Source: Candidatus Bathyarchaeota archaeon
Lineage (GTDB): Archaea; Thermoproteota; CALKCG01; B24
Assembly: GCA_018396755.1 (NCBI GenBank)
Contig: JAGTQM010000005.1
Span: 23,620-87,619, forward strand
DNA: 64,000 nucleotides
Direction of reading: 5' to 3'
Part shown: positions 1,680 through 60,452 of the stretch, piece after piece
How positions within the stretch are numbered: the first letter of the stretch is position 1
Layout: each line of letters opens with the position of its first letter
Notes under the pieces: model-generated
Database searches by the model: none
What the model saw: the letters and a program-made list of their open reading frames with translations, nothing else
Told to the model about the DNA's origin: nothing
Position numbers and translations under genes: made by a program

Positions 1680-2766
1680 TTGATGACTGGTGAAAGTTTT
1701 TTCACACTTAGGACGATACGGTGGGAGGATGGCGCTATAGTTGCAGTAGATCAGAGGCTACTGCCTAAGAGGCTTAAATACGTTAAGATACATAGCGTAG
1801 AGCAGCTTTCTGAAGCCATTAAAAACCTCACTATAAGAGGGGCGCCTGCCATAGGTGTTGCAGCGGCGCTTGGATTAGCATTAGTTGCACATAAATCTAA
1901 AGCAGAAAATATTGGTGATTTCAAAAGAGAAATTATGGATGCGTATGAGAGGCTTAAATCTACGAGACCTACAGCTGTGAACCTATTTTGGGCTCTAGAT
2001 AGGGTCGTTGCGAAGATTTCTGAGGCTAAAGACCCTGGAGAGGCTAAGAAGATTGCTGTAGAAGAGGCTAAAACAATATGGATGGAAGACTATGAAATAA
2101 ATAGACGTATAGGAGAGCATGGAGCTACACTGCTTGAAAACGGAGATATGGTGCTCACGCACTGTAAATGGCTTAAACCAGCAGAATGCGGGAGCACTAG
2201 CTACCACGGGATATGGAACCGCGCTTGCGGTAATAAGGTCGGCTGTAGCTAGAGGTTTACATGTAGAAGTTTATGCAACCGAGACCAGACCAGTACTTCA
2301 AGGTGCTAGGTTAACGGCTTTTGAACTTCTCATAGATAGAATACCGTTTAAGCTTGTAACCGATAATGCTGTCGGATTCTTGATGCGTAGGAAACTTGTG
2401 GATAAAGTCATAGTCGGTGCCGATAGAATAGCTTTAAACGGTGACGTTATCAATAAGATAGGTACTTATATGTTAGCGGTTCTTGCAAATCACCATGGGA
2501 TACCGTTCTACGTAGCAGCTCCAATGTCAACCGTAGACCCTAAGCTTGAGCATGGCGACGACGCCCCTATAGAGTTTAGAAGTGGAGAAGAAGTTGTTAC
2601 GATTTACGGTTGTAAAATAGCCCCTGAAGGTGTTGAAGCGTTAAACCCTGCTTTCGACGTAACCCCTTCAAAGCTGGTAACAGCCATTATAACTGAGCTG
2701 GGAGTATTTAAAGTACCAGATGACTTGGATAGACTGAAGAATATTAGACTTGAGAAAAGTATTTAA
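1680..2766 (+). CDS. mtnA: Methylthioribose-1-phosphate isomerase / aIF-2BI family protein. The frame is interrupted by a 19-nt insert (exon 1 1680..2167, exon 2 2187..2766; 355 aa after removal).
   Basis: ORFs 1680..2252 and 2119..2766 are the two halves of one protein. The N-terminal half reads [27 protein letters not shown] and ends ..VLTHC. The C-terminal half starts at [14 protein letters not shown] and carries [28 protein letters not shown] at 1683 is an alternative to TTG at 1680. Confidence 0.85.
2168..2186 (+). other. Putative bulge-helix-bulge intron inside the mtnA-type mRNA (19 nt, atggcttaaaccagcagaa)
   Basis: Fold read directly from the sequence. Outer helices are 2151-2156/2192-2197 and 2158-2161/2187-2190. 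The central 4-bp helix is ctgt(2162-2165)/gcag(2181-2184). The 5' bulge is aaa (2166-2168) and the 3' bulge is aa(t) (2185-2187). The inner hairpin is tgg-cttaaa-cca. Cutting after the second bulge nucleotide on each side joins cac tgt aa|t gcg gga, which reads HCNAG in frame. Confidence 0.6.
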
Positions 2767-3864: not shown

Positions 3865-4941
3865 CTACAATCGTTCAAACCCTACTCCTCTACATTCTAT
3901 TTCACTCGGTCTACCTAAACCTCCATCTATTTTAAAGTCGGCATTTAGAACGATCCTACTAAGCTCTATGCAAGTTAGAGTGTGCAGCGTAAGTTCTACG
4001 GTTTTAAATCTGCTTACGCCATCCGCTAGGCTAGCCCATACGATGAGTTGATCGCAGAGATGTTTATCCATAGGATAGCCTCCTCTGAGTAGGTTAACCA
4101 GTTCTTCAGCTGCTTCTGAGCCTATAAGCTCAGCCCGTTTACCTATAACACCCAGCCTATCCACGCCTAGGTAGCCATAGGTATGCTTAACTGTTAAGAT
4201 TAATCCGCAACCTGGATCTAAGCTACACTTAGGGTTTGGGGGTTGAAGGACTTCTTTCTCGAAAATCGGTTTTAAACCGATTATGCTGAGTTTTTCTGAG
4301 GCGCTTAAAGCCATCCTATTGACTATATGTTCAGGTAGTCTACAGCTATATGTTAATCCTCTGACTTCTGATATTTCACCAAGCTTGTCGAGGGTTATGG
4401 GTTCAAGCTTTCCAACGGGCTCTGTTGAAAATTCGACTTCTCCACCGCCCTTAGGGTAGAAGCCTCTCCTATTTAGTTTTAAATTAGCTTTAACCCCCAT
4501 GAGCCTAAGATTCGGTAGTAAAACCCTCTCAATATAGTCTACTGGAGGAGCCATAGGGTTGTTTGTACCGCCTACAAGCGTAAGCTTAACGTAGCCCGGT
4601 GTAAAAGCCATAACAGGCATGGCGGCTTGAAGGATTAAGGTTACACTTCCAGCAGTACCGACGTCGAACTTGTAAGAGCCTGCTTTAAGCTTTCCAGGGT
4701 TGAAAATAACCTCTGTTGAGCCTAAATTTAAACCTTCAACGTAACCATCGCATAGGGCAGATAAGACTTTCAAAGCTGTCATATGCTGTCTCGCTAAACC
4801 AGGTGGTTTACGTTTACCTCTAACATTCACTACTCTAACAGGTTCACCTAGCAGAGCTGATAAAGACGTAGACATTCTAAGTATCTGCCCACCACCTTCA
4901 AGCATGTCTCCCTGTATGGTTATCATAACACTCAACTCCAT
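3865..4941 (-). CDS. rtcA: RNA 3'-terminal phosphate cyclase
   Basis: GGGQILRMSTSLSALLGEPVRVVNVRGKRKPPGLARQH and full-length colinearity with the RtcA family (358 aa). Confidence 0.9.
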   Translation of the reverse strand: MELSVMITIQGDMLEGGGQILRMSTSLSALLGEPVRVVNVRGKRKPPGLARQHMTALKVLSALCDGYVEGLNLGSTEVIFNPGKLKAGSYKFDVGTAGSVTLILQAAMPVMAFTPGYVKLTLVGGTNNPMAPPVDYIERVLLPNLRLMGVKANLKLNRRGFYPKGGGEVEFSTEPVGKLEPITLDKLGEISEVRGLTYSCRLPEHIVNRMALSASEKLSIIGLKPIFEKEVLQPPNPKCSLDPGCGLILTVKHTYGYLGVDRLGVIGKRAELIGSEAAEELVNLLRGGYPMDKHLCDQLIVWASLADGVSRFKTVELTLHTLTCIELSRIVLNADFKIDGGLGRPSEIECRGVGFERL

Positions 4942-16971: not shown

Positions 16972-17217
16972 GTGGTCAGAGTTGTACTGAAAGTAAGGAA
17001 TAAAGGCGTGCTGATACTGCCGAAGTCTCTGAGAGAGGTTGCTGGTATAGGTGAAGGTGAGGTGGCTGTTGAGGCTAGGGAGGGGGAGATAGTGATAAGA
17101 CCTCTCAAGCCAAGAATTGTCGATATAGACCACCGCATTGTTGAAGAGATACTAGGCGAGGAGAGTAGGCTTGAGGAGGAGAAGTTTAAGAGAATCCTTA
17201 GAGGCGTACGTGGTTGA
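16972..17217 (+). CDS. vapB: AbrB/SpoVT-family antitoxin (VapB-like)
   Basis: NKGVLILPKSLREVAGIGEGEVAVEAREGEIVIRP is a swapped-hairpin AbrB motif. The gene overlaps the downstream PIN gene. Confidence 0.7.
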   Translation: MVRVVLKVRNKGVLILPKSLREVAGIGEGEVAVEAREGEIVIRPLKPRIVDIDHRIVEEILGEESRLEEEKFKRILRGVRG

Positions 17218-17650
17218 TACGGGGGTTCTAGTAGAGTATATAGTAAGGGGTTCACCTCATAGAAGCGCCGTTGAGAAGCTGCTTAACGACGTGCTGAAGA
17301 AGATCGTAGAGCTATACGTAACACCCATTACAGTCTCAGAGCTCATATACGTAGCATCTAGACTTTACGAGCTGGCTGGCGTTGAGAAGCCCAACGAGGA
17401 AGCGCTGAACTTCGTTAAGTGGCTTACTATGAGAGCTAAGACAGTAGAGGTAGCACCAGACATAGCGGTTGAAGTCGGAGAGCTCAGGAAAAAGCTTAGA
17501 ATAGCTCTATCAGACTGCTATGTAATAGCTACCGCAATAAAGCTCCAGGCAAAAGCACTCTTTCTAAGGCCGGAGAAGGAGATGCTCGATAGAATAGAAG
17601 AGCTGAGAGAGCTACCTATAGCATTTCTCACAGAGGCCAGCTTGAGATAA
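17210..17650 (+). CDS. vapC: PIN-domain ribonuclease toxin (VapC)
   Basis: VVDTGVLVEY at the N-terminus and LSDCYVIATAIKLQAKAL near the C-terminus. GTG at 17210 overlaps the vapB stop. The track ORF begins at 17171. Confidence 0.75.
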   Translation: MVDTGVLVEYIVRGSPHRSAVEKLLNDVLKKIVELYVTPITVSELIYVASRLYELAGVEKPNEEALNFVKWLTMRAKTVEVAPDIAVEVGELRKKLRIALSDCYVIATAIKLQAKALFLRPEKEMLDRIEELRELPIAFLTEASLR

Positions 17651-30758: not shown

Positions 30759-31148
30759 TTAAACCTTCTCCGTCAGCTCTATAAGTTTCTTTATTATCGG
30801 CATTCTCCTTCTCACATCCTCTGCATCTAGCTTCGCCTCGTGAAAACCCCACACGTGTAGGTAGTTTGCCGCATCCCACTCAAGCTGTACATCTATACCT
30901 ATCTTATCCACGAGCTTTCCAACAGCTCTTTCAAGTAGGGTAACTGTCCACCTACCCCTCTCCTCAGCGGTCTTAGACTCTTCTAAGTTGAAACGTTCAG
31001 AGAGAATTTTGATGCATTCTTCAGCAGCCTTATACAGTTTTTCGGAGGACTGTAGAGAGTCCTTCTTAGCCAAGAGATCTTCGGCTTCACTAAGCAAATG
31101 CTTAATAAGTCCAACCGTTGTAGATGCGACCATTTTAATCTTCAACAA
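30759..31148 (-). CDS. PaREP1-family protein (HEPN-superfamily-like)
   Basis: AEDLLAKKDSLQSSEKLYKAAEECIKIL....RGRWTVTLLERAV...LH.WGFHE pattern of crenarchaeal PaREP1 proteins. Confidence 0.7.
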   Translation of the reverse strand: MLKIKMVASTTVGLIKHLLSEAEDLLAKKDSLQSSEKLYKAAEECIKILSERFNLEESKTAEERGRWTVTLLERAVGKLVDKIGIDVQLEWDAANYLHVWGFHEAKLDAEDVRRRMPIIKKLIELTEKV

Positions 31149-33548: not shown

Positions 33549-34817
33549 CTACCGTTTTCTCACGTACTTAGCCTTACCTGGTATTTCAGGAGGAGTCTCT
33601 TTTAAACCTCCGAGTATGCTGAATTCCTCCTCTGTAAGACCCAGGTTTTTACCTATCTTCTCGCATAAGCTTGGGTTTAAAACGGCTATAGCCTTCAAAT
33701 ACGGGAGGTATTCTCTAACGGCCTTAGCCCGGGAAGCATGGGTTTTAGAGGCTATTTTAGCGGCTAAACCGTTTAAAAGCTCTCTCCTAGCTTTAAAGCT
33801 ACTGAGAAACCTTATTCTAGATGGGAATTTGAAGGGAGCCCATTTAGGCTTACTATATCGCCTAGACATCGCTACACCAGCGGTCATACACTCCAACGCG
33901 TAGCTTAAAAGCTTCCAATTCTGCTCCCTCTTAATCTTGGCTAGAAACAGGTCTGCTAGTGCAAGGTTTTCAAAGGCCTCAGCCAAGTCTTCGAGAGCGT
34001 TAAATTGAGCTGGCACGTTTTCATAAACCCATTCAAAGAACATTTCAGGATCCATGTCAACCATTTCAAACGCAGATTTAGCACCGTTAACTGTTTTAGC
34101 GTAGAAGACTAGTTTTAAAGCGTCGAATATCTGTAGGATTCTATTTCTAGCGGCGAGCCAACTTACATCTTCAGCTGTTATACGTTTACGCCCATAGGAG
34201 ACTGTTTGAAGGTCGTTTACAGCAGACCTCATATCGCCTTCGGCTTTCTCAGCTATTAACTTTAAAGCACCGTCATCCGCTTCCAACCCCTCCACAGCGC
34301 ATATACGTTTCAAATGCTTAATTACGTCTCTAGAAGTAAGCCTCTTAAACTCTATGAGCTCGCAGACTTCTCTTAAAATGGAAAACCTAGGCTGCCATAT
34401 ATCGTTGGCAACCAGTATAACGGGGTTTCTCGACTTTCTTATAACGTCTAAGAGAGCTGTTAAACCTCCAACGTCTTCACCAGCTATACCGTCAACCTCA
34501 TCTATCAGAATTATACGTTTACTCTGACCGTAGAGGGTGCCCTGCTCCGCAGCTCTACCAGCAACTCTAGATATTTTCTCAGCAGTCCTCCAATCGCTTG
34601 CGTTCATTTCAACGAGGTCGTAGTTGAACAGCCTAGCCACGATCAACGCTATGGTTGTTTTACCTACACCTGGAGGACCGTATAGAAGAGTAGCCTTCTT
34701 ACCTCTTGGATTCCAGTTTTTAACCCATCTGATTAAACGTTCAACAGCTTCGCTATTGCCTACGTATTCTTCCAAGCTTTTAGGCCTATACTTCTCAACC
34801 CACGGGACTTCAGACAA
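33549..34817 (-). CDS. rfcL: Replication factor C large subunit
   Basis: WVEKYRPKSL, Walker A GPPGVGKTT and DEVDG. It lies 3 nt after the RFC small-subunit stop. Confidence 0.9.
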   Translation of the reverse strand: MSEVPWVEKYRPKSLEEYVGNSEAVERLIRWVKNWNPRGKKATLLYGPPGVGKTTIALIVARLFNYDLVEMNASDWRTAEKISRVAGRAAEQGTLYGQSKRIILIDEVDGIAGEDVGGLTALLDVIRKSRNPVILVANDIWQPRFSILREVCELIEFKRLTSRDVIKHLKRICAVEGLEADDGALKLIAEKAEGDMRSAVNDLQTVSYGRKRITAEDVSWLAARNRILQIFDALKLVFYAKTVNGAKSAFEMVDMDPEMFFEWVYENVPAQFNALEDLAEAFENLALADLFLAKIKREQNWKLLSYALECMTAGVAMSRRYSKPKWAPFKFPSRIRFLSSFKARRELLNGLAAKIASKTHASRAKAVREYLPYLKAIAVLNPSLCEKIGKNLGLTEEEFSILGGLKETPPEIPGKAKYVRKR

Positions 34818-34820
34818 CGC

Positions 34821-37800
34821 CTATCCTCCTTTTAAAGCGGCAAGTTTTATCTTAGCCAGTAAAGCCATTATCTGAACTTCTTCATCTGCACCTTGGTCTA
34901 TTCTGAAGTCTGCTTCACCTACAAGCTCGATAATTTTAAGTTTAACAGGCTCAGGAACGTCTAGTTTAAACACTTGAGAATGTATCTGCTTCACTATGTC
35001 AGAGCCAGAGTAGCCTTCCATGTAAAGCATTTTCCTAAGCTCTTCCCTAGCCTCGATTAAGTCGCCCTTTATAGAGATATCCAGTAGATCCGATATTCTC
35101 TTGGGGTGGACAAGCCCGATAACCCTGTAGACAACGTCAGAAGTTACGGATTCACCAGTCGCCGAAGCAGCTTGGAGAAGGTTTATAGCTCTTCTAAGGT
35201 CTCCGGCAGCTATTTCAGCTATAGCATCAACACCGTCTTCAGAAAACGGGACGTCTTCAGATTTAGCGATACGCTTCAGAAAATCAACCGTATCCACTCT
35301 AGGCAACGGTGCAAACCTGAAAATCGCACATCTAGACTGTATAGGCTCAATAATACGACTACTGTAATTACAAGAAAGTATAAACCTGCAAGTATCCGTG
35401 TACTTCTCCATAGTTCTCCTAAGAGCATGCTGAGCGTCGCTGGTGTTATGAGTTAGTATTCCATTAGCTAGAAAGAAGTTTTTATTCTTTCGCGTCGATA
35501 TGTTTAATACTTTGTATCTACCAGCATGCTTCACATTTTTCACCTTAACGTGTTTGATTTTAGGTATTCCATGACCGGATATTCCTACGGCCTCATAGAT
35601 CCTGTTTCTAACATCTTCAAGGAGCTGTGTATTTCTCAATTCATGCTCCCAAACTATAACTGTCTTAAAGTTCCTTTTCTCCAACTCTTCCAATAAAAGC
35701 TGGTCTTTCACCATGTTAGCTTTCTGCCTTTCATACTTTGGAGTTAACCCACATACGGGACAGACATGCCACCAGCAACCGTTCATTAGAAGAGCCACCT
35801 TATCCCCTATTACGAAATCTATTGAGGTTGCGAATCCTCTGTTTCCATTCCTCCTGACATATATGTACTCTCTTCTATAGGGGATTCCCCATTCCCTCAG
35901 ATATTTAGCCATATCTTCTTCAAGCCTGCTTCTAAACCCTCTCTTTCTCCACGCCTCCGCGGACCTTCTCCAAGCCTTATAAGAGACCCGCTTGAAGAAG
36001 CCGGATTCGACGAGCTTTCTATATTTTTCAGATTTAGTCAAGCTTATCTTCACATTATGGGAAATCCTTTCCCTAATACTTCTATCACGTTCAAACCTCT
36101 CTCTAACACCTCTACCGATTGCTATCCTATGCTCTAAGCTTAGCTTCCTATCTTTCCAGTAACCTTCAGGGTAGAGTTTAGCCATCGAGCTTAACCTAAT
36201 TTTCCCCTTTTTCAGAAGTCTTTTAGCGATCTCTGAACGCTTTCTACGATAGTCCTCACTCTGATAAACACCTCTCTCCTTAAGAGCTGAGGCTCCTCTA
36301 AGTGCTATCTTCCTCCTCTCCTCTAAGCTACGTCCTCTCGAAATCTTTCCCAGATATTCATTTCTACAGCTTAAGGAGCAGAAATGAAGCTCGTAAAATA
36401 TCCATGAAGGATATGGCCTGTAAAAAATTCTCCCGCAGTTATAGCATTTTAGAAATCTATCGCTAAAGTCTGCTATTAACGTGATACCTGGTTTTAGGTC
36501 CTTAGTTTTAACAACTTCTACGCTTCTTCCCTCTATCTTGAAGAAGGGGTGCTCAGAAGAGGCAAGTATAGACCTTCCGTCTTCTAGTATGATCTCATAG
36601 AGGTCTGCGACACCCGAGTCAACTACCCTACCTTTATCATCATCAGGCTTTAATGTTGTAAAGTTTAACGACGGTAGATCAAATTCTTCAGTACCATATT
36701 CCTCCATAAGCTTTCTTAAAGTAGAAACGCGTAAGTCGTTTAACTTACCTACTATAACCTCGGTATCTGGAGAGAGACACAAGTGATCAGCCTCGTCGAG
36801 GACAAGTATTTTAAACGGCACATCCAGTAAACTCTTACTTCTAGCAAAACGTTTAACAGTATCTCTAATGACGTTTATCCCCCTTTCATCTGAGGCATTA
36901 AGCTCCATAAAACTGTCCATTAGAAATTTACCGAAAAGATCCCCAGCTAAACATAGTGCAGCTGTCGTGTTGTGGGCTACTACTCCATTTGACAACAGGA
37001 AGGAGTGGTTCGTAGCAGCAACTAAATCCGCTACTGGGAATTTTCCCGCAGTCTCTTTAACATCGACCACTTCATCATATATGAAGTCGCTGACAAGTAT
37101 TGAAGCTATTTCTGCAAGTTTCTCTTCTAAATCGCATAGTATTCTTAAACGTTCATCTATGGCATTTGAAAGATTTCTCACGTATTTAACCATGTATGGT
37201 AACCTTGTTGAATTTGCATTCGGAAAAGACCCTATCTTAGCCTCCTTCACCCTAAGATATTTTATGGCTTGTTTTGCCAATTCCTTTAAATGCGGGTAGA
37301 CGTCTAAGGTTTTCCTTTTAGAAACACTTAATACATGATGATCGTCATCTATTTTCTTAGCAGTAGACGAGAGGAGATGTAGTTTTCTACCTTTTCCCTC
37401 GACCTTCCGAAGCTTCTCCTCCATGCGGAATATGAAATCTAAAGTTGCTGTTTTCAGGAAATCTTCCAATTCCATTTTGATGGAATTAAGGCTTTTTCTT
37501 TGCATGTGTAATTCGCTTATAAGCTCGTCTACTCTTATGCAGGCTTTCAACCTGTTCCTCACATACCATTTAGAATAATGACGGTTTTTGGCGTGAGCAA
37601 AACGCATACTTGTAGGCACTATCCATCGTGCATACTCGCTTAAGTCAAGCCTTATAATATCTTCATATCCGTTAGTATGTAGGTTTAATCTACGTAACTT
37701 GTTCTGATTCGTAAAACCTATAAGCTCTACAAACCTCTTCTTACTCTCTCGGTCACATATGCAGAGCTTAGTTTGCCCATTACCATCTCTTATTCTGGCG

Positions 37801-38888
37801 AATATCCCCAGACGAAGTAGAAGTATTGTCAAGTCTTCTACGATCCTCTTATGCTTCTGACTTAAGTATACTCCACTACTTTCCACCCACCCATCTCCAT
37901 CGAAGAAGGCCCTGAGATAATGTTTAACCATGGAGGTAGGTAGTCTAAATATTATATCGGGAGCCTTCTCCTTCGTGAACCTTCCGAAAAGCTTATTCAT
38001 GAAAAACTCATAGTGAGCTGCTTTTGGAATGTAGTAGTCAAATTTAGTATTTTTAACCTTTACAACATTCAGTCCAAATACTTTTTCAATAAGCTGCTTA
38101 AACCGATCGACTATTATGTAGTCGCTGTTGATGAAACGTCTCCAGCTACTCCCCTCAGACTGAAGATAGCCAACTATCTCCAAGAGTTCTTCAGACAATC
38201 TCCATACTGGTTTCATGGGATGGGAATATGAGCCACCATCTATCTTCCGACCGTAGTAAAGGGTCAGTGCCTTGAGACATTTCTTCAAAACCTCATAATC
38301 CTCAGGTTTTATCGATTTTAAAAATACCTCCTCACCATATTTCTCTGACAAAGGAGGCTCTAATTTACATACAAGTCTATCCTCTAAATCCTTCATGAGC
38401 GTTATCAAATCTATGTCGAGCTCTTGATTCGCTTCTAACGCATCGGGTATTCTCCGTGCAACTAATATTTTATCCCCCCTCTTGATGTCGCATGCCTTCT
38501 TCCAGACTATAGTATGATTATCAAAGACTGGGAAGAAGTGTTCAGGAGTACACTTAACTTCTCTCCCGCTCCTCGTCTTCAACTCTATGAGTTTTTCAGC
38601 CTCTCCAAGATAGACATACGAGTAATTTCCTTTCACAACCCTGCCGATGGATGATGGGGCAAATATCTCCTCTCCCATTTCCATTTCTACTATACGTTTG
38701 GGTCCTGAAGCCGTTAAAACCGTCGTATCTATGGAGACACATTTACCTGTTCCAGGTGGACCTGCAAAAAGGCAATGAGGCATAGACTTTGTTTCAACGA
38801 ATCTTCTCAATCTTTCCACTATATCCTTCTGATTAACCATGTCTTTTAGGCTTCTAGGCCGGTACTTCTCACTCCATAGCTCGCTCAC
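34821..38888 (-). CDS. rfcS: Replication factor C small subunit precursor containing two inteins (mature extein about 319 aa)
   Basis: Extein pieces are WSEKYRPRSL..GPPGTGK | TTAALCLA..LDEADHL | TSDAQHALRRTMEKY..SRC. Both inserts begin with Cys and end with HN followed by Thr. Confidence 0.95.
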   Translation of the reverse strand: MSELWSEKYRPRSLKDMVNQKDIVERLRRFVETKSMPHCLFAGPPGTGKCVSIDTTVLTASGPKRIVEMEMGEEIFAPSSIGRVVKGNYSYVYLGEAEKLIELKTRSGREVKCTPEHFFPVFDNHTIVWKKACDIKRGDKILVARRIPDALEANQELDIDLITLMKDLEDRLVCKLEPPLSEKYGEEVFLKSIKPEDYEVLKKCLKALTLYYGRKIDGGSYSHPMKPVWRLSEELLEIVGYLQSEGSSWRRFINSDYIIVDRFKQLIEKVFGLNVVKVKNTKFDYYIPKAAHYEFFMNKLFGRFTKEKAPDIIFRLPTSMVKHYLRAFFDGDGWVESSGVYLSQKHKRIVEDLTILLLRLGIFARIRDGNGQTKLCICDRESKKRFVELIGFTNQNKLRRLNLHTNGYEDIIRLDLSEYARWIVPTSMRFAHAKNRHYSKWYVRNRLKACIRVDELISELHMQRKSLNSIKMELEDFLKTATLDFIFRMEEKLRKVEGKGRKLHLLSSTAKKIDDDHHVLSVSKRKTLDVYPHLKELAKQAIKYLRVKEAKIGSFPNANSTRLPYMVKYVRNLSNAIDERLRILCDLEEKLAEIASILVSDFIYDEVVDVKETAGKFPVADLVAATNHSFLLSNGVVAHNTTAALCLAGDLFGKFLMDSFMELNASDERGINVIRDTVKRFARSKSLLDVPFKILVLDEADHLCLSPDTEVIVGKLNDLRVSTLRKLMEEYGTEEFDLPSLNFTTLKPDDDKGRVVDSGVADLYEIILEDGRSILASSEHPFFKIEGRSVEVVKTKDLKPGITLIADFSDRFLKCYNCGRIFYRPYPSWIFYELHFCSLSCRNEYLGKISRGRSLEERRKIALRGASALKERGVYQSEDYRRKRSEIAKRLLKKGKIRLSSMAKLYPEGYWKDRKLSLEHRIAIGRGVRERFERDRSIRERISHNVKISLTKSEKYRKLVESGFFKRVSYKAWRRSAEAWRKRGFRSRLEEDMAKYLREWGIPYRREYIYVRRNGNRGFATSIDFVIGDKVALLMNGCWWHVCPVCGLTPKYERQKANMVKDQLLLEELEKRNFKTVIVWEHELRNTQLLEDVRNRIYEAVGISGHGIPKIKHVKVKNVKHAGRYKVLNISTRKNKNFFLANGILTHNTSDAQHALRRTMEKYTDTCRFILSCNYSSRIIEPIQSRCAIFRFAPLPRVDTVDFLKRIAKSEDVPFSEDGVDAIAEIAAGDLRRAINLLQAASATGESVTSDVVYRVIGLVHPKRISDLLDISIKGDLIEAREELRKMLYMEGYSGSDIVKQIHSQVFKLDVPEPVKLKIIELVGEADFRIDQGADEEVQIMALLAKIKLAALKGG
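35445..36779 (-). mobile_element. Intein 2 (445 aa) in the RFC-S DEAD(Walker B)/sensor region, carrying a zinc ribbon and a Vsr-like PD-(D/E)xK endonuclease core
   Basis: Junctions are DEADHL|CLSPDTEV and ILTHN|TSDAQ. The zinc ribbon is CYNCG...CSLSC. The segment 35631..35930 encodes SIDFVIGDKVALLMNGCWWHVC...ANMVKDQ...KTVIVWEHEL, which is colinear with Vsr (PDFVV...HGCFWH...N..RD...VLIVWE). Confidence 0.85.
36969..38741 (-). mobile_element. Intein 1 (591 aa) in the RFC-S P-loop, with a LAGLIDADG homing endonuclease domain
   Basis: Junctions are GTGK|CVSIDT and VVAHN|TTAAL. LAGLIDADG-type motifs are LLEIVGYLQSEGS and YLRAFFDGDGWV. Confidence 0.9.
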
Positions 38889-43566: not shown

Positions 43567-43664
43567 GCTCCGGTCGAGAAGCGATATGCTTCGCCGAATA
43601 TAGCCTGGTCAAGTATTCCGGCCTTTCGAGCCGGAGGTCGCGGGTTCAAATCCCGCCCGGAGCA
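43567..43664 (+). tRNA. tRNA-Glu (TTC) with a 22-nt intron at a non-canonical D-arm position (intron about 43577..43598)
   Basis: Acceptor gctccgg/ccggagc plus discriminator a, anticodon stem ccggc/gccgg with loop ctTTCga, T arm gcggg-ttcaaat-cccgc. Between the acceptor stem and D loop sits a BHB-like fold: helix cggt/gccg, 3-nt bulge cga, hairpin gaagc-gatat-gcttc, second bulge aat. Splicing yields G10 and a gtat/gtat D stem. Confidence 0.85.
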
Positions 43665-44040
43665 CTTCACCATTGCTGGAATAGTGCTAGGTGAGGGACT
43701 TCACTGGCGACAATATATAAGGGGATATTTACCTTACTGAATTTTTATCCTCAAGAAAACGCTAAATCCTATAAGCTGCTTAAGAGGGTGAGTATAAGCT
43801 CCCATAATTAAGCCTAGGCGTAACGCTAGGGCTGACAGGGGTCCTCCAGAAAGGCGTAGGGCGTTAGGCTGGTTAAAAACGTTGGGAGATGGAAGATGGG
43901 TTGGGATTATGAGATACGGAAGGTGCTGGTCTGCTGAAATAGCATTCTCAACGTTTAAATTCAATCAATAATTAAGCCGTGAAACAAAAATAGCCAAAAT
44001 ATTAGAAGATTGCGTTACAAAGCAGAATACTTTAAGAACA

Positions 44041-48010: not shown

Positions 48011-48379
48011 TTAGAGGGCATCTAAGATTTTTACCCCCTCTTCTTCCATCGTCTTTATCCACTTTGAATCTTTGCACTCTTCAAACCTTCTCCTCGACAT
48101 TATATGTAGTTCAACCCTTGGAAGTTTAATGCCTTTCATCAAAGTTTTATAAACCTCGTTTTCACTGCTTTTCTCATCGTCGAATACGACGAAGATGTCG
48201 ATATCGCTTGCAACAGTATAATCCCCTCTAGCATATGAACCGAATAGTAGAACCTTACATAACCCTAAACGTTCACGGTTTTCCTCAACGCATCTACCGA
48301 TCTCTTTAACTATTTCTTCCCTACTAAATCTTGGAAAGGACACTTTCACAGAACTTGAATATTTTTTCAGCGTATTCAA
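48011..48379 (-). CDS. Minimal nucleotidyltransferase (MNT) of a HEPN-MNT module
   Basis: LLFGSYARGDYTVASDIDIFVVF (GSxxRG...SDxD). The true start is probably downstream of the track Met because of the overlap with the HEPN gene. Confidence 0.8.
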   Translation of the reverse strand: MNTLKKYSSSVKVSFPRFSREEIVKEIGRCVEENRERLGLCKVLLFGSYARGDYTVASDIDIFVVFDDEKSSENEVYKTLMKGIKLPRVELHIMSRRRFEECKDSKWIKTMEEEGVKILDAL

Positions 48380-48719
48380 TTAAACGTTCAGCCTCCCTTC
48401 GCGTATACCTCCTCCTAGGAGAAGAAGATGGATGCGCATTAGGATAACGCGCAGGTATATATGCTTTATCAAGCTCTAGAGCATAATCCAGCAATTCACT
48501 ACTAACTTCAAATCTACCGCTTAAGCTGGAGAGCAAATCGAAGACCAAATAACCCCAAGCTTCAGCTCCAAGCTTTTGAAGGACTGCTTTAACGGCTTTT
48601 TCAGCAGACTGCTGAGCTGAAAAACAAGCCCAATCATAAAAGCCGGACCTTAAATCGTTTTTCGCGTGTTCTAAATCACCCTCGGCCTGATCCATCCAGT
48701 CTTTACTTCTTTCAACCAT
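48324..48719 (-). CDS. HEPN-domain protein
   Basis: A..DL..A......G.YDWACF.AQQSAEKAVKA and KAYIPARYP are HEPN hallmarks. Confidence 0.8.
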   Translation of the reverse strand: MVERSKDWMDQAEGDLEHAKNDLRSGFYDWACFSAQQSAEKAVKAVLQKLGAEAWGYLVFDLLSSLSGRFEVSSELLDYALELDKAYIPARYPNAHPSSSPRRRYTRREAERLIEYAEKIFKFCESVLSKI

Positions 48720-57758: not shown

Positions 57759-57850
57759 AGCCCGGTGGTGTAGCGGCCAAGCATGGCGGGCTCTGGATCC
57801 GACTCCCGAGGGGAACCCCGCCGACGGGAGTTCGAATCTCCCCCGGGCTA
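57759..57850 (+). tRNA. tRNA-Gln (CTG) with a 19-nt intron at the canonical 37/38 position (57797..57815)
   Basis: A1:U72 acceptor agcccgg/ccgggct, D arm gtgt/gcat, anticodon stem gcggg/cccgc, exon loop ctCTGg..c, T arm gggag-ttcgaat-ctccc. The BHB is weaker than in the other introns (central helix ctct/gggg via G-U pairs, 3' bulge aa|c). Confidence 0.85.
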
Positions 57851-58069
57851 CTAAACCATGATTTCCATGAATCCCCAGGGCATATCCTACTTCCTCCTGA
57901 AAAGCTTTGCTCTATCTATGTCGCAGACGTACTTGAATCCAGATTCCACCAGCTTCATAGCCTCCTCCATGTTTCTAGCAGCTCTACAGATGAACTCGTC
58001 TCTCGGTGAAACGTCGATGCTCATGAGGTTACACTTAGCTCCTTCAGTTTCAATTCCCTTAATCTTCGT

Positions 58070-60349: not shown

Positions 60350-60452
60350 GGGCCGGTAGCTTAGCATGGTTATAGCACCCGGCTGATAAAACCAGAGAAC
60401 AAACGCGATTTCAGAAACCGGGAGGTCGCCGGTTCAAATCCGGCCCGGCCCA
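60350..60452 (+). tRNA. tRNA-Ile (GAT) with a 28-nt intron at the canonical 37/38 position (60389..60416)
   Basis: Acceptor gggccgg/ccggccc, anticodon stem cccgg/ccggg, T arm gccgg-ttcaaat-ccggc. Textbook BHB: central helix ctga(60383-86)/tcag(60411-14), bulges ta|a and aa|a. Confidence 0.85.

Follow-up and report, generated by a model that had tools for sequence, protein, structure and literature searches.

A candidate bulge-helix-bulge intron between the catalytic cysteine and the invariant asparagine codons of mtnA in a narrow clade of Bathyarchaeia

The cbf5 gene of Crenarchaeota is the only archaeal coding sequence reported to contain an intron of the bulge-helix-bulge (BHB) type, and the HVO_1309 gene of Haloferax has such an intron in its 5' untranslated region (UTR) (PMC2738675, PMC7714728, PMC10485636). 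The cbf5 intron of Crenarchaeota was described by Yokobori in 2009 (PMC2738675), and according to a 2023 review more archaeal mRNA introns are probably still to be found (PMC10485636). In this study, we analysed a window of 64,000 nucleotides (contig JAGTQM010000005.1, positions 23,620 to 87,619 of the forward strand; all positions below are those of the window) from a Candidatus Bathyarchaeota metagenome-assembled genome (MAG) with KEJ27 locus tags. On the + strand of this window lies mtnA, which encodes S-methyl-5-thioribose-1-phosphate isomerase of the methionine salvage pathway, and which is interrupted by 19 nt at 2168-2186. We judge it about 80% probable that this insert is a genuine BHB intron, spliced by EndA and RtcB, in the mtnA coding sequence of a narrow Bathyarchaeia clade of hot-spring type. 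The first-pass annotation, which had proposed the intron from the letters of the DNA, held that BHB introns are known from very few archaeal protein-coding genes, with cbf5 as the classic case and none in mtnA, and this agrees with the searchable literature, where we found no mention of an intron in mtnA or of a BHB/frameshift survey.

The cbf5 pre-mRNA intron of Crenarchaeota (Aeropyrum, Sulfolobus, Desulfurococcales) was reportedly also studied by Watanabe in 2002 and Yoshinari in 2006. Like cbf5, mtnA would carry a short BHB-type intron with a relaxed motif inside a protein-coding sequence, its size is in the tRNA-intron range, it is confined to a subset of related species, and the endonuclease expected in its host lineage is of the hetero-oligomeric (alpha-beta)2 type. 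The locus does not belong to the cbf5 type in the narrow sense of host gene and Crenarchaeota, the host gene being mtnA and the source a Bathyarchaeota MAG. Whereas cbf5 encodes an RNA pseudouridine synthase, mtnA encodes a metabolic isomerase, and the lineage is Bathyarchaeia rather than Crenarchaeota. Unlike the cbf5 intron, the mtnA intron is 19 nt long and shifts the frame, lies between the catalytic Cys codon and the invariant Asn codon, and is closed by a 12-bp exon-exon helix that stems from clade-specific codon choice. In addition, cbf5 splicing has been shown experimentally, whereas mtnA splicing is predicted from sequence. The proposed mechanism is of the same kind as that of cbf5, and what is new is the host gene, the lineage, the Cys/Asn position and the codon-tuned exon helix.

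Two other systems are close enough for comparison. The 5'-UTR intron of HVO_1309 in Haloferax volcanii is likewise BHB-flanked and located in an mRNA, and it is processed by the tRNA splicing endonuclease (PMC7714728). It differs in its position in the 5' UTR, in its length of 46 nt, in its host, a euryarchaeon with the alpha2 enzyme, and in that no reading frame is interrupted. The IRE1-dependent splicing of HAC1 and XBP1 mRNA in eukaryotes is also independent of the spliceosome, and consists of a structure-specific cut followed by rejoining through an RtcB-type or a tRNA ligase. As in mtnA, a short intron changes the reading frame there, but the endonuclease is unrelated, the motif is a pair of stem-loops, and the process is stress-regulated, whereas we found no evidence of regulation for mtnA.

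The homology to MtnA in the open reading frame (ORF) at 1680-2252 stops at VLTHC and is followed by a non-homologous tail; it is picked up again at NAGALAT by the ORF at 2119-2766, in the +1 frame. In-silico removal of the 19 nt of the insert (ATGGCTTAAACCAGCAGAA) restores the frame and gives a 354-aa ORF from ATG 1683, with a junction of cac tgt aat gcg gga (H C N A G) and a contiguous THCNAG. In this model, exon 1 (1683-2167) comprises codons 1-161 and the AA of Asn162, ending in GTG CTC ACG CAC TGT AA, and exon 2 (2187-2766) brings the T of Asn162, continues with GCG GGA and runs to a stop codon at 2764-2766. For exon 1, TTG 1680 offers a second possible start, and relatives start at the equivalent of ATG 1683. 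The in-silico spliced product belongs to the MtnA/M1Pi family (TIGR00512, NF004326; Pfam PF01008): it is full-length, contains the motif Cys and scores above the curated cutoffs (448 bits against NCBIfam NF004326, cutoff 271; 438 bits against TIGR00512, cutoff 279). It matches MtnA in PDB with E = 1e-105, and its alignment with 1t9k and 6a34 is free of gaps through THCNAGALAT. Among 119 full-length homologs, the motif is always contiguous and insertion-free, with THCNAG in 115 and single-residue variants in the other 4, and Cys-Asn is invariant in all 119. Thus, the two claims of the first-pass annotation on the gene itself, a MtnA homolog in two frames separated by 19 nt and a family motif that is normally contiguous, were borne out, the former by the ORF list, the sequence and the 354-aa product. 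The catalytic residues of MtnA we take to be Cys160 and Asp240, a numbering for which no confirmation was found in the searchable literature. The Cys equivalent to that of the motif is catalytic, as shown by mutagenesis, in the paralogous R15P isomerase (R15Pi; PMC5789824). One protein considered as a spliced product, P0235, was rejected, as it represents the +1-frame ORF with an out-of-frame leader.

Folding of 2145-2203 with RNAfold returned the proposed BHB as both the minimum free energy (MFE) structure and the centroid (-23.3 kcal/mol). Its z score is -3.89, and the stability was matched by none of 200 dinucleotide shuffles. The complete fold occupies 2149-2199 on the + strand and is made up of an outer exon-exon helix, a central helix, two bulges and an intronic hairpin. 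In the outer helix, the 5' arm (2149-2161) pairs with 2187-2199 through 8 + 4 bp (12 bp): 2149-2156 with 2192-2199 and, after a 1x1 mismatch between A2157 and G2191, cgca with tgcg. The central 4-bp helix, ctgt/gcag with one U-G pair, joins CUGU of the His/Cys codons (2162-2165) to intronic GCAG (2181-2184). On its two strands lie the 5' bulge AAA (2166-2168), where the fold and a BHB scanner predict a cut between A2167 and A2168, and the 3' bulge AA with U2187 (2185-2187; AG instead of AA in the carriers L079-L082 described below), with a predicted cut between 2186 and 2187. The intronic hairpin, UGG-CUUAAA-CCA at 2169-2180, has a 3-bp stem. The general features of a BHB are present: a 4-bp central helix with bulges on opposite strands is seen in the MFE, the centroid and the scanner output, closing helices of at least 2 bp flank it on the exonic (4 + 8 bp) and intronic (3 bp) sides, and cuts after the second bulge nucleotide on each side give the in-frame 354-aa MtnA with THCNAG. 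The fold drawn in the first-pass annotation, which had named RNAfold as a check, was reproduced to the nucleotide.

A permissive BHB scan of the whole window that allowed introns of up to 150 nt gave 550 matches. Since such a loose scan is useless as evidence, a test with fixed site and fixed length was used instead. In shuffled sequence, BHB geometry with an intron of 19 nt turned up at a rate of about 3.3 per 128,000 positions, and its expectation at the homology-defined junction is about 8e-5 over the three homology-compatible registers. When the outer helix must also reach 12 bp or more, the frequency is 0.1 per 128,000 shuffled positions, and the expectation at the junction becomes roughly 100-fold smaller.

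The same scanner and cut rule recovered both 37/38 tRNA introns of the window, that of tRNA-Ile(GAU) at 60389-60416 (28 nt) and that of tRNA-Gln(CUG) at 57797-57815 (19 nt). Structural work places the archaeal BHB cut between the second and third bulged nucleotides (PMC12397907), a rule that both of these introns obey. The end AA/N, where the slash marks the cut, is common to the mtnA insert and both tRNA introns; thus, the bulge rule that the first-pass annotation had noted for tRNA-Ile also applies to tRNA-Gln. The mtnA insert resembles pre-tRNA 37/38 introns in having a 4-bp central helix made of exonic 5' bases and intronic 3' bases, in the cut after the second bulge nucleotide and in the 3' bulge AA/N, and its length equals that of the tRNA-Gln intron. 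By contrast, both bulges of the tRNA introns of the window are canonical with 3 nt, and these introns are embedded in a tRNA scaffold, whereas in mtnA the 3' bulge measures 2 nt and a tRNA body is absent.

We found the insert at the same codon, and always with 19 nt, in 13 other independent contigs, which span at least five species (83-92% nucleotide identity) and together with the window make 14 carriers. The 13 comprise L002-L005, which are genomes representing four species (84-93% amino-acid identity), seven JGI metagenome contigs (L078-L083 and L087), a Logan assembly of SRR24425230 (L001) and an NCBI MAG (L158). The next closest homologs are only 53-60% identical and uninterrupted, and no near relative with an empty site was present among the homologs found. 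Selection was analysed on five species-level sequences, between which the synonymous divergence dS reaches about 0.9. The ratio of nonsynonymous to synonymous rates, omega, is 0.09-0.20 in exon 1 and 0.06-0.14 in exon 2 in its own frame, and no further indels or stops are present in the carriers. Within these five genomes, 1 of the 19 insert columns is variable, compared with 61% of third codon positions (Fisher p = 1e-6), and the insert is also more conserved than first (17% variable) and second (14%) codon positions. When all 14 carriers are counted, column 2186 joins 2177, and 2 of the 19 vary. No second copy of the insert sequence occurs in the window. No intact mtnA paralog of the same MAG, as judged by accession series, was seen among the closest intact homologs, which is not proof of absence.

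Seven distinct motif sequences occur among the carriers, and all 19 pairs form in each of them. The stem substitutions C2162U, A2193G and G2150A are one-sided and keep the pairing, changing C-G to U-G (C2162U in L001), U-A to U-G and G-U to A-U. In the loop, A2177G adds a C-G pair and gives a 4-bp hairpin stem with a UUAA loop. Because AA is present on both flanks of the insert, the sequence of the window yields one and the same product from three cut registers. With A2186G, found in L079-L082, only cuts between 2167 and 2168 and between 2186 and 2187 yield Cys-Asn, while the other two registers yield Cys-Ser. The register of the BHB rule is therefore singled out as the only one that leaves the invariant Asn in these carriers, and the coincidence of the homology-based and structure-based junctions, as initially claimed, is upheld by this natural variant.

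The pairing of the outer helix is not a general property of mtnA. All carriers pair at 12 of 12 positions, whereas 113 intron-less homologs with the motif pair at 4-8, and those with the identical peptide VLTHCNAGAL at only 4-6. The spliced junction region folds with -17.7 kcal/mol, against a homolog mean of -7.2 (standard deviation 2.4). In the five species-level sequences, third codon positions in the arms are variable at 2 of 11, compared with 214 of 343 elsewhere (p = 0.004). Judged from these comparisons, the exon-exon helix is a product of clade-specific codon choice and not a by-product of the conserved peptide, and codon choice has been shaped to keep the helix, since the full pairing of carriers exceeds that of homologs and third positions in the arms are constrained. 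It was also observed that, after in-silico splicing, 2149-2199 keeps a 12-bp hairpin with a CUGUAA loop over the active-site codons.

These results suggest the following course of events. In the pre-mRNA, the codons M-V-L-T-H (2149-2161) would pair with the codons (N)-A-G-A-L (2187-2199), and the His/Cys codon bases CUGU would form the 4-bp central helix with intronic GCAG, leaving AAA (3 nt) and AA[U] (2-3 nt) as bulges on opposite strands. The splicing endonuclease EndA would then cut after the second nucleotide of each bulge, that is, after A2167 and after A2186, and an RtcB-type RNA ligase would join CAC UGU AA to U GCG GGA, which would complete the Asn162 codon and give a contiguous THCNAG. 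Unspliced mRNA would be limited to a truncated product of 189 aa, without the C-terminal half. The predicted spliced junction is CACUGUAA/UGCGGG in RNA, with CTCACGCACTGTAATGCGGGAGCAC as the k-mer across the junction, and the unspliced form would show ACTGTAAATGGC and CAGCAGAATGCG. We infer cleavage and ligation by EndA and RtcB from the motif, and the type of endonuclease in this organism from the literature on TACK archaea. The (alpha-beta)2 endonuclease is found chiefly among TACK archaea, with Bathyarchaeota as one of its host groups, and tolerates bulges of varied length (PMC7714728; PMC12397907). Endonucleases able to process relaxed motifs are those of (alpha-beta)2 or epsilon2 type.

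Several observations weigh against this interpretation. No spliced cDNA or protein was found among the 5.8 billion proteins or the assemblies searched, and a junction-centred 100-aa query gave nothing above 71% identity that spans the junction. There is no EndA or RtcB gene within the 64-kb window, and the enzyme type rests on literature. The motif departs from the canonical hBHBh', in which both bulges are exactly 3 nt: of the 2-3 nt given for the 3' bulge in the first-pass annotation, 2 nt hold in the predicted fold, and 3 nt arise only with the terminal pair A2161-U2187 open. As modelled, the motif is a relaxed 3-4-2 BHB and not a canonical 3-4-3; relaxed motifs have been reported for cbf5 and for substrates of the (alpha-beta)2 endonuclease. 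No double-sided compensatory changes are seen in the seven distinct sequences, which, with carriers 98% identical in the motif, have no power to reveal covariation. For L079 and L001, a competing register that lacks the BHB becomes the predicted MFE; the BHB of the window's own tRNA-Gln is likewise not its MFE. Finally, both variable insert sites, 2177 and 2186, are synonymous third positions in frame 0, for which the chance probability is about 0.14.

That synonymy is what would be expected if the insert stayed in the mRNA and was passed by programmed +1 ribosomal frameshifting, with the conserved hairpin as a recoding signal. The ribosome would either slip at CUU-A (2172-2175) or read frame 0 through GAA (2184-2186) and then skip U2187. 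The frame offset is indeed +1, a Ty1-like CUU-A string lies inside the insert, the hairpin is conserved, and a +1-frame stop in L004 and L087, which limits any shift to 2152-2186, is compatible with this mechanism. However, both products break the invariant motif. Slippage at CUU-A would give THC-KWLNQQ-NAG, while none of the 119 homologs has an insertion in the motif, and would turn the invariant Asn into Ser in L079-L082; frame-0 read-through followed by a shift would lose the invariant Asn altogether. Neither candidate shift site is followed by a rare or stop codon, although programmed +1 shifts are expected to have a slow or stop codon in the A site after a shift-prone codon in the P site. 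Moreover, a recoding stimulator is expected downstream of the shift site, which here is enclosed by the helix, and frameshifting offers no reason for the precise BHB geometry or for the coincidence in register (about 8e-5). Frameshifting is therefore an improbable explanation. We consider it quite improbable, too, that EndA cleavage is mainly regulatory, inactivating the mRNA or gating MtnA synthesis through conditional splicing, rather than a step of constitutive maturation. The truncated coding capacity of the unspliced RNA and the competing non-BHB fold of some carriers, which could permit switching, speak for such a role, and the 5'-UTR intron of HVO_1309 has been proposed to affect expression (PMC7714728). 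On the other hand, strong purifying selection acts on exon 2 as read after splicing, which requires that the ligated product be made, and no ligand-binding or alternative conserved structure was detected, with no Rfam match at E <= 10 over 2050-2300.

A split enzyme, with two ORFs translated apart, the C-terminal half from ATG 2119, and assembled non-covalently, could be imagined, as the second ORF begins with this ATG both in the window and in the majority of carriers. L004 and L087, however, have TAG at 2149-2151 in that frame and no start codon before exon 2, which refutes the split-protein model, and exon 2 is still under selection despite this stop. In addition, neither the length nor the sequence of the frame-0 tail is constant among carriers, with a stop at 2250 or 2280, the break would separate the catalytic Cys from the invariant Asn, and the conservation of the insert would have no explanation. 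The chance that the halves work as separate proteins is very small. Just as little can be said for a pseudogene in decay or for an artefact of assembly or sequencing, to which the annotation might point: GenBank has no protein between HflX (MBS7611225) and prepilin peptidase (MBS7611226), as expected of a gene annotated as frameshifted. An artefact is excluded by the same-codon insert in the 13 further independent contigs, and a pseudogene by purifying selection on both halves (omega 0.06-0.20 at dS up to about 0.9), by the lack of other indels or stops in any carrier and by an insert far more conserved than synonymous sites, and more so than first and second codon positions. The first-pass annotation had named both of these as possibilities to be excluded and had suggested an alignment of orthologs at this codon, and the computational checks that it proposed all spoke for the intron. 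Taken together, a spliced BHB intron in mtnA remains the interpretation that we favor.

As to where the intron may have come from, the mtnA intron (2172-2186) and the tRNA-Ile intron (60389-60416) share the 7-mer AAACCAG and the end CAGAA/, with the slash again at the cut. The probability of the shared 7-mer by chance is roughly 2%, a post hoc estimate. This resemblance hints that the mtnA mRNA intron may derive from a tRNA intron. In the most far-reaching scenario, splicing would be an obligatory, possibly conditional gate on the synthesis of this methionine-salvage enzyme, with the competing non-BHB fold as the off state; the intron would have originated by transfer of a tRNA-type intron into a protein gene, in view of the length common with the tRNA-Gln intron and the stretches common with the tRNA-Ile intron, and it would stand for a larger, so far hidden class of mRNA introns in archaea that annotation pipelines at present discard as 'frameshifted pseudogenes'. 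We regard this combination as speculative and rather unlikely as a whole.

In its surroundings, mtnA has HflX upstream and an A24 prepilin peptidase downstream. No other interrupted gene was found among five adjacent or overlapping same-strand ORF pairs of the window, all of which proved to be complete separate genes. The opposite strand encodes RtcA, an RNA 3'-terminal phosphate cyclase (3865-4941, - strand; Pfam RTC, 270 bits), at a distance of 1.1 kb downstream of mtnA; its pathway is that of RNA-end healing and ligation, and nothing here ties it to the intron. Intervening sequence at the protein level is present in the replication factor C (RFC) small subunit (34821-38888, - strand; 1355 aa), which contains two intein-splicing stretches and a LAGLIDADG domain and is followed by the RFC large subunit (33549-34817).

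Among the tRNA genes, tRNA-Ile(GAU) (60350-60452, + strand), with its canonical BHB intron of 28 nt, was missed by ARAGORN and found by Rfam only, and tRNA-Gln(CUG) lies at 57759-57851 on the + strand. For tRNA-Glu(UUC) (43588-43665, + strand), ARAGORN places the anticodon at position 38, Rfam matches model positions 9-63 only (38 bits), and the 5' acceptor strand has no obvious pairing to the 3' end; this gene may have a small non-canonical insert or intron near its 5' end. Toxin-antitoxin-like genes typical of archaea are represented by a HEPN/nucleotidyltransferase pair (48011-48719, - strand), a PIN-domain protein (17171-17650, + strand) and a PaREP1-family protein (30759-31148, - strand).

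Two further breaks in mtnA-like sequences were considered as related and rejected. In an ANME-1 MAG (L068, 2782-2836), the break is a 1-nt slip at a different site in a variable region and looks like an indel or assembly error, and in a Planctomycetales contig (L071, 737-2138) two mtnA-like high-scoring segment pairs look like tandem paralogs. In the Logan contig L001, positions 1-25 are an Illumina adapter remnant (GTTCAGACGTGTGCTCTTCCGATCT).

In summary, if the proposed splicing is true, mtnA would be the second known archaeal gene that needs tRNA-type splicing of its coding sequence, and the phenomenon would be extended to Bathyarchaeia, a lineage distinct at phylum level, to a core metabolic enzyme and to a site inside a catalytic motif, with exon codon usage recruited for the splice helix. 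Annotation presumably treated mtnA as frameshifted, and other genes of archaeal MAGs that carry such an intron would probably be lost in the same way. A screen of frame-broken 'pseudogenes' in such MAGs for a BHB located at the break could show how far mRNA splicing by the tRNA machinery has spread.

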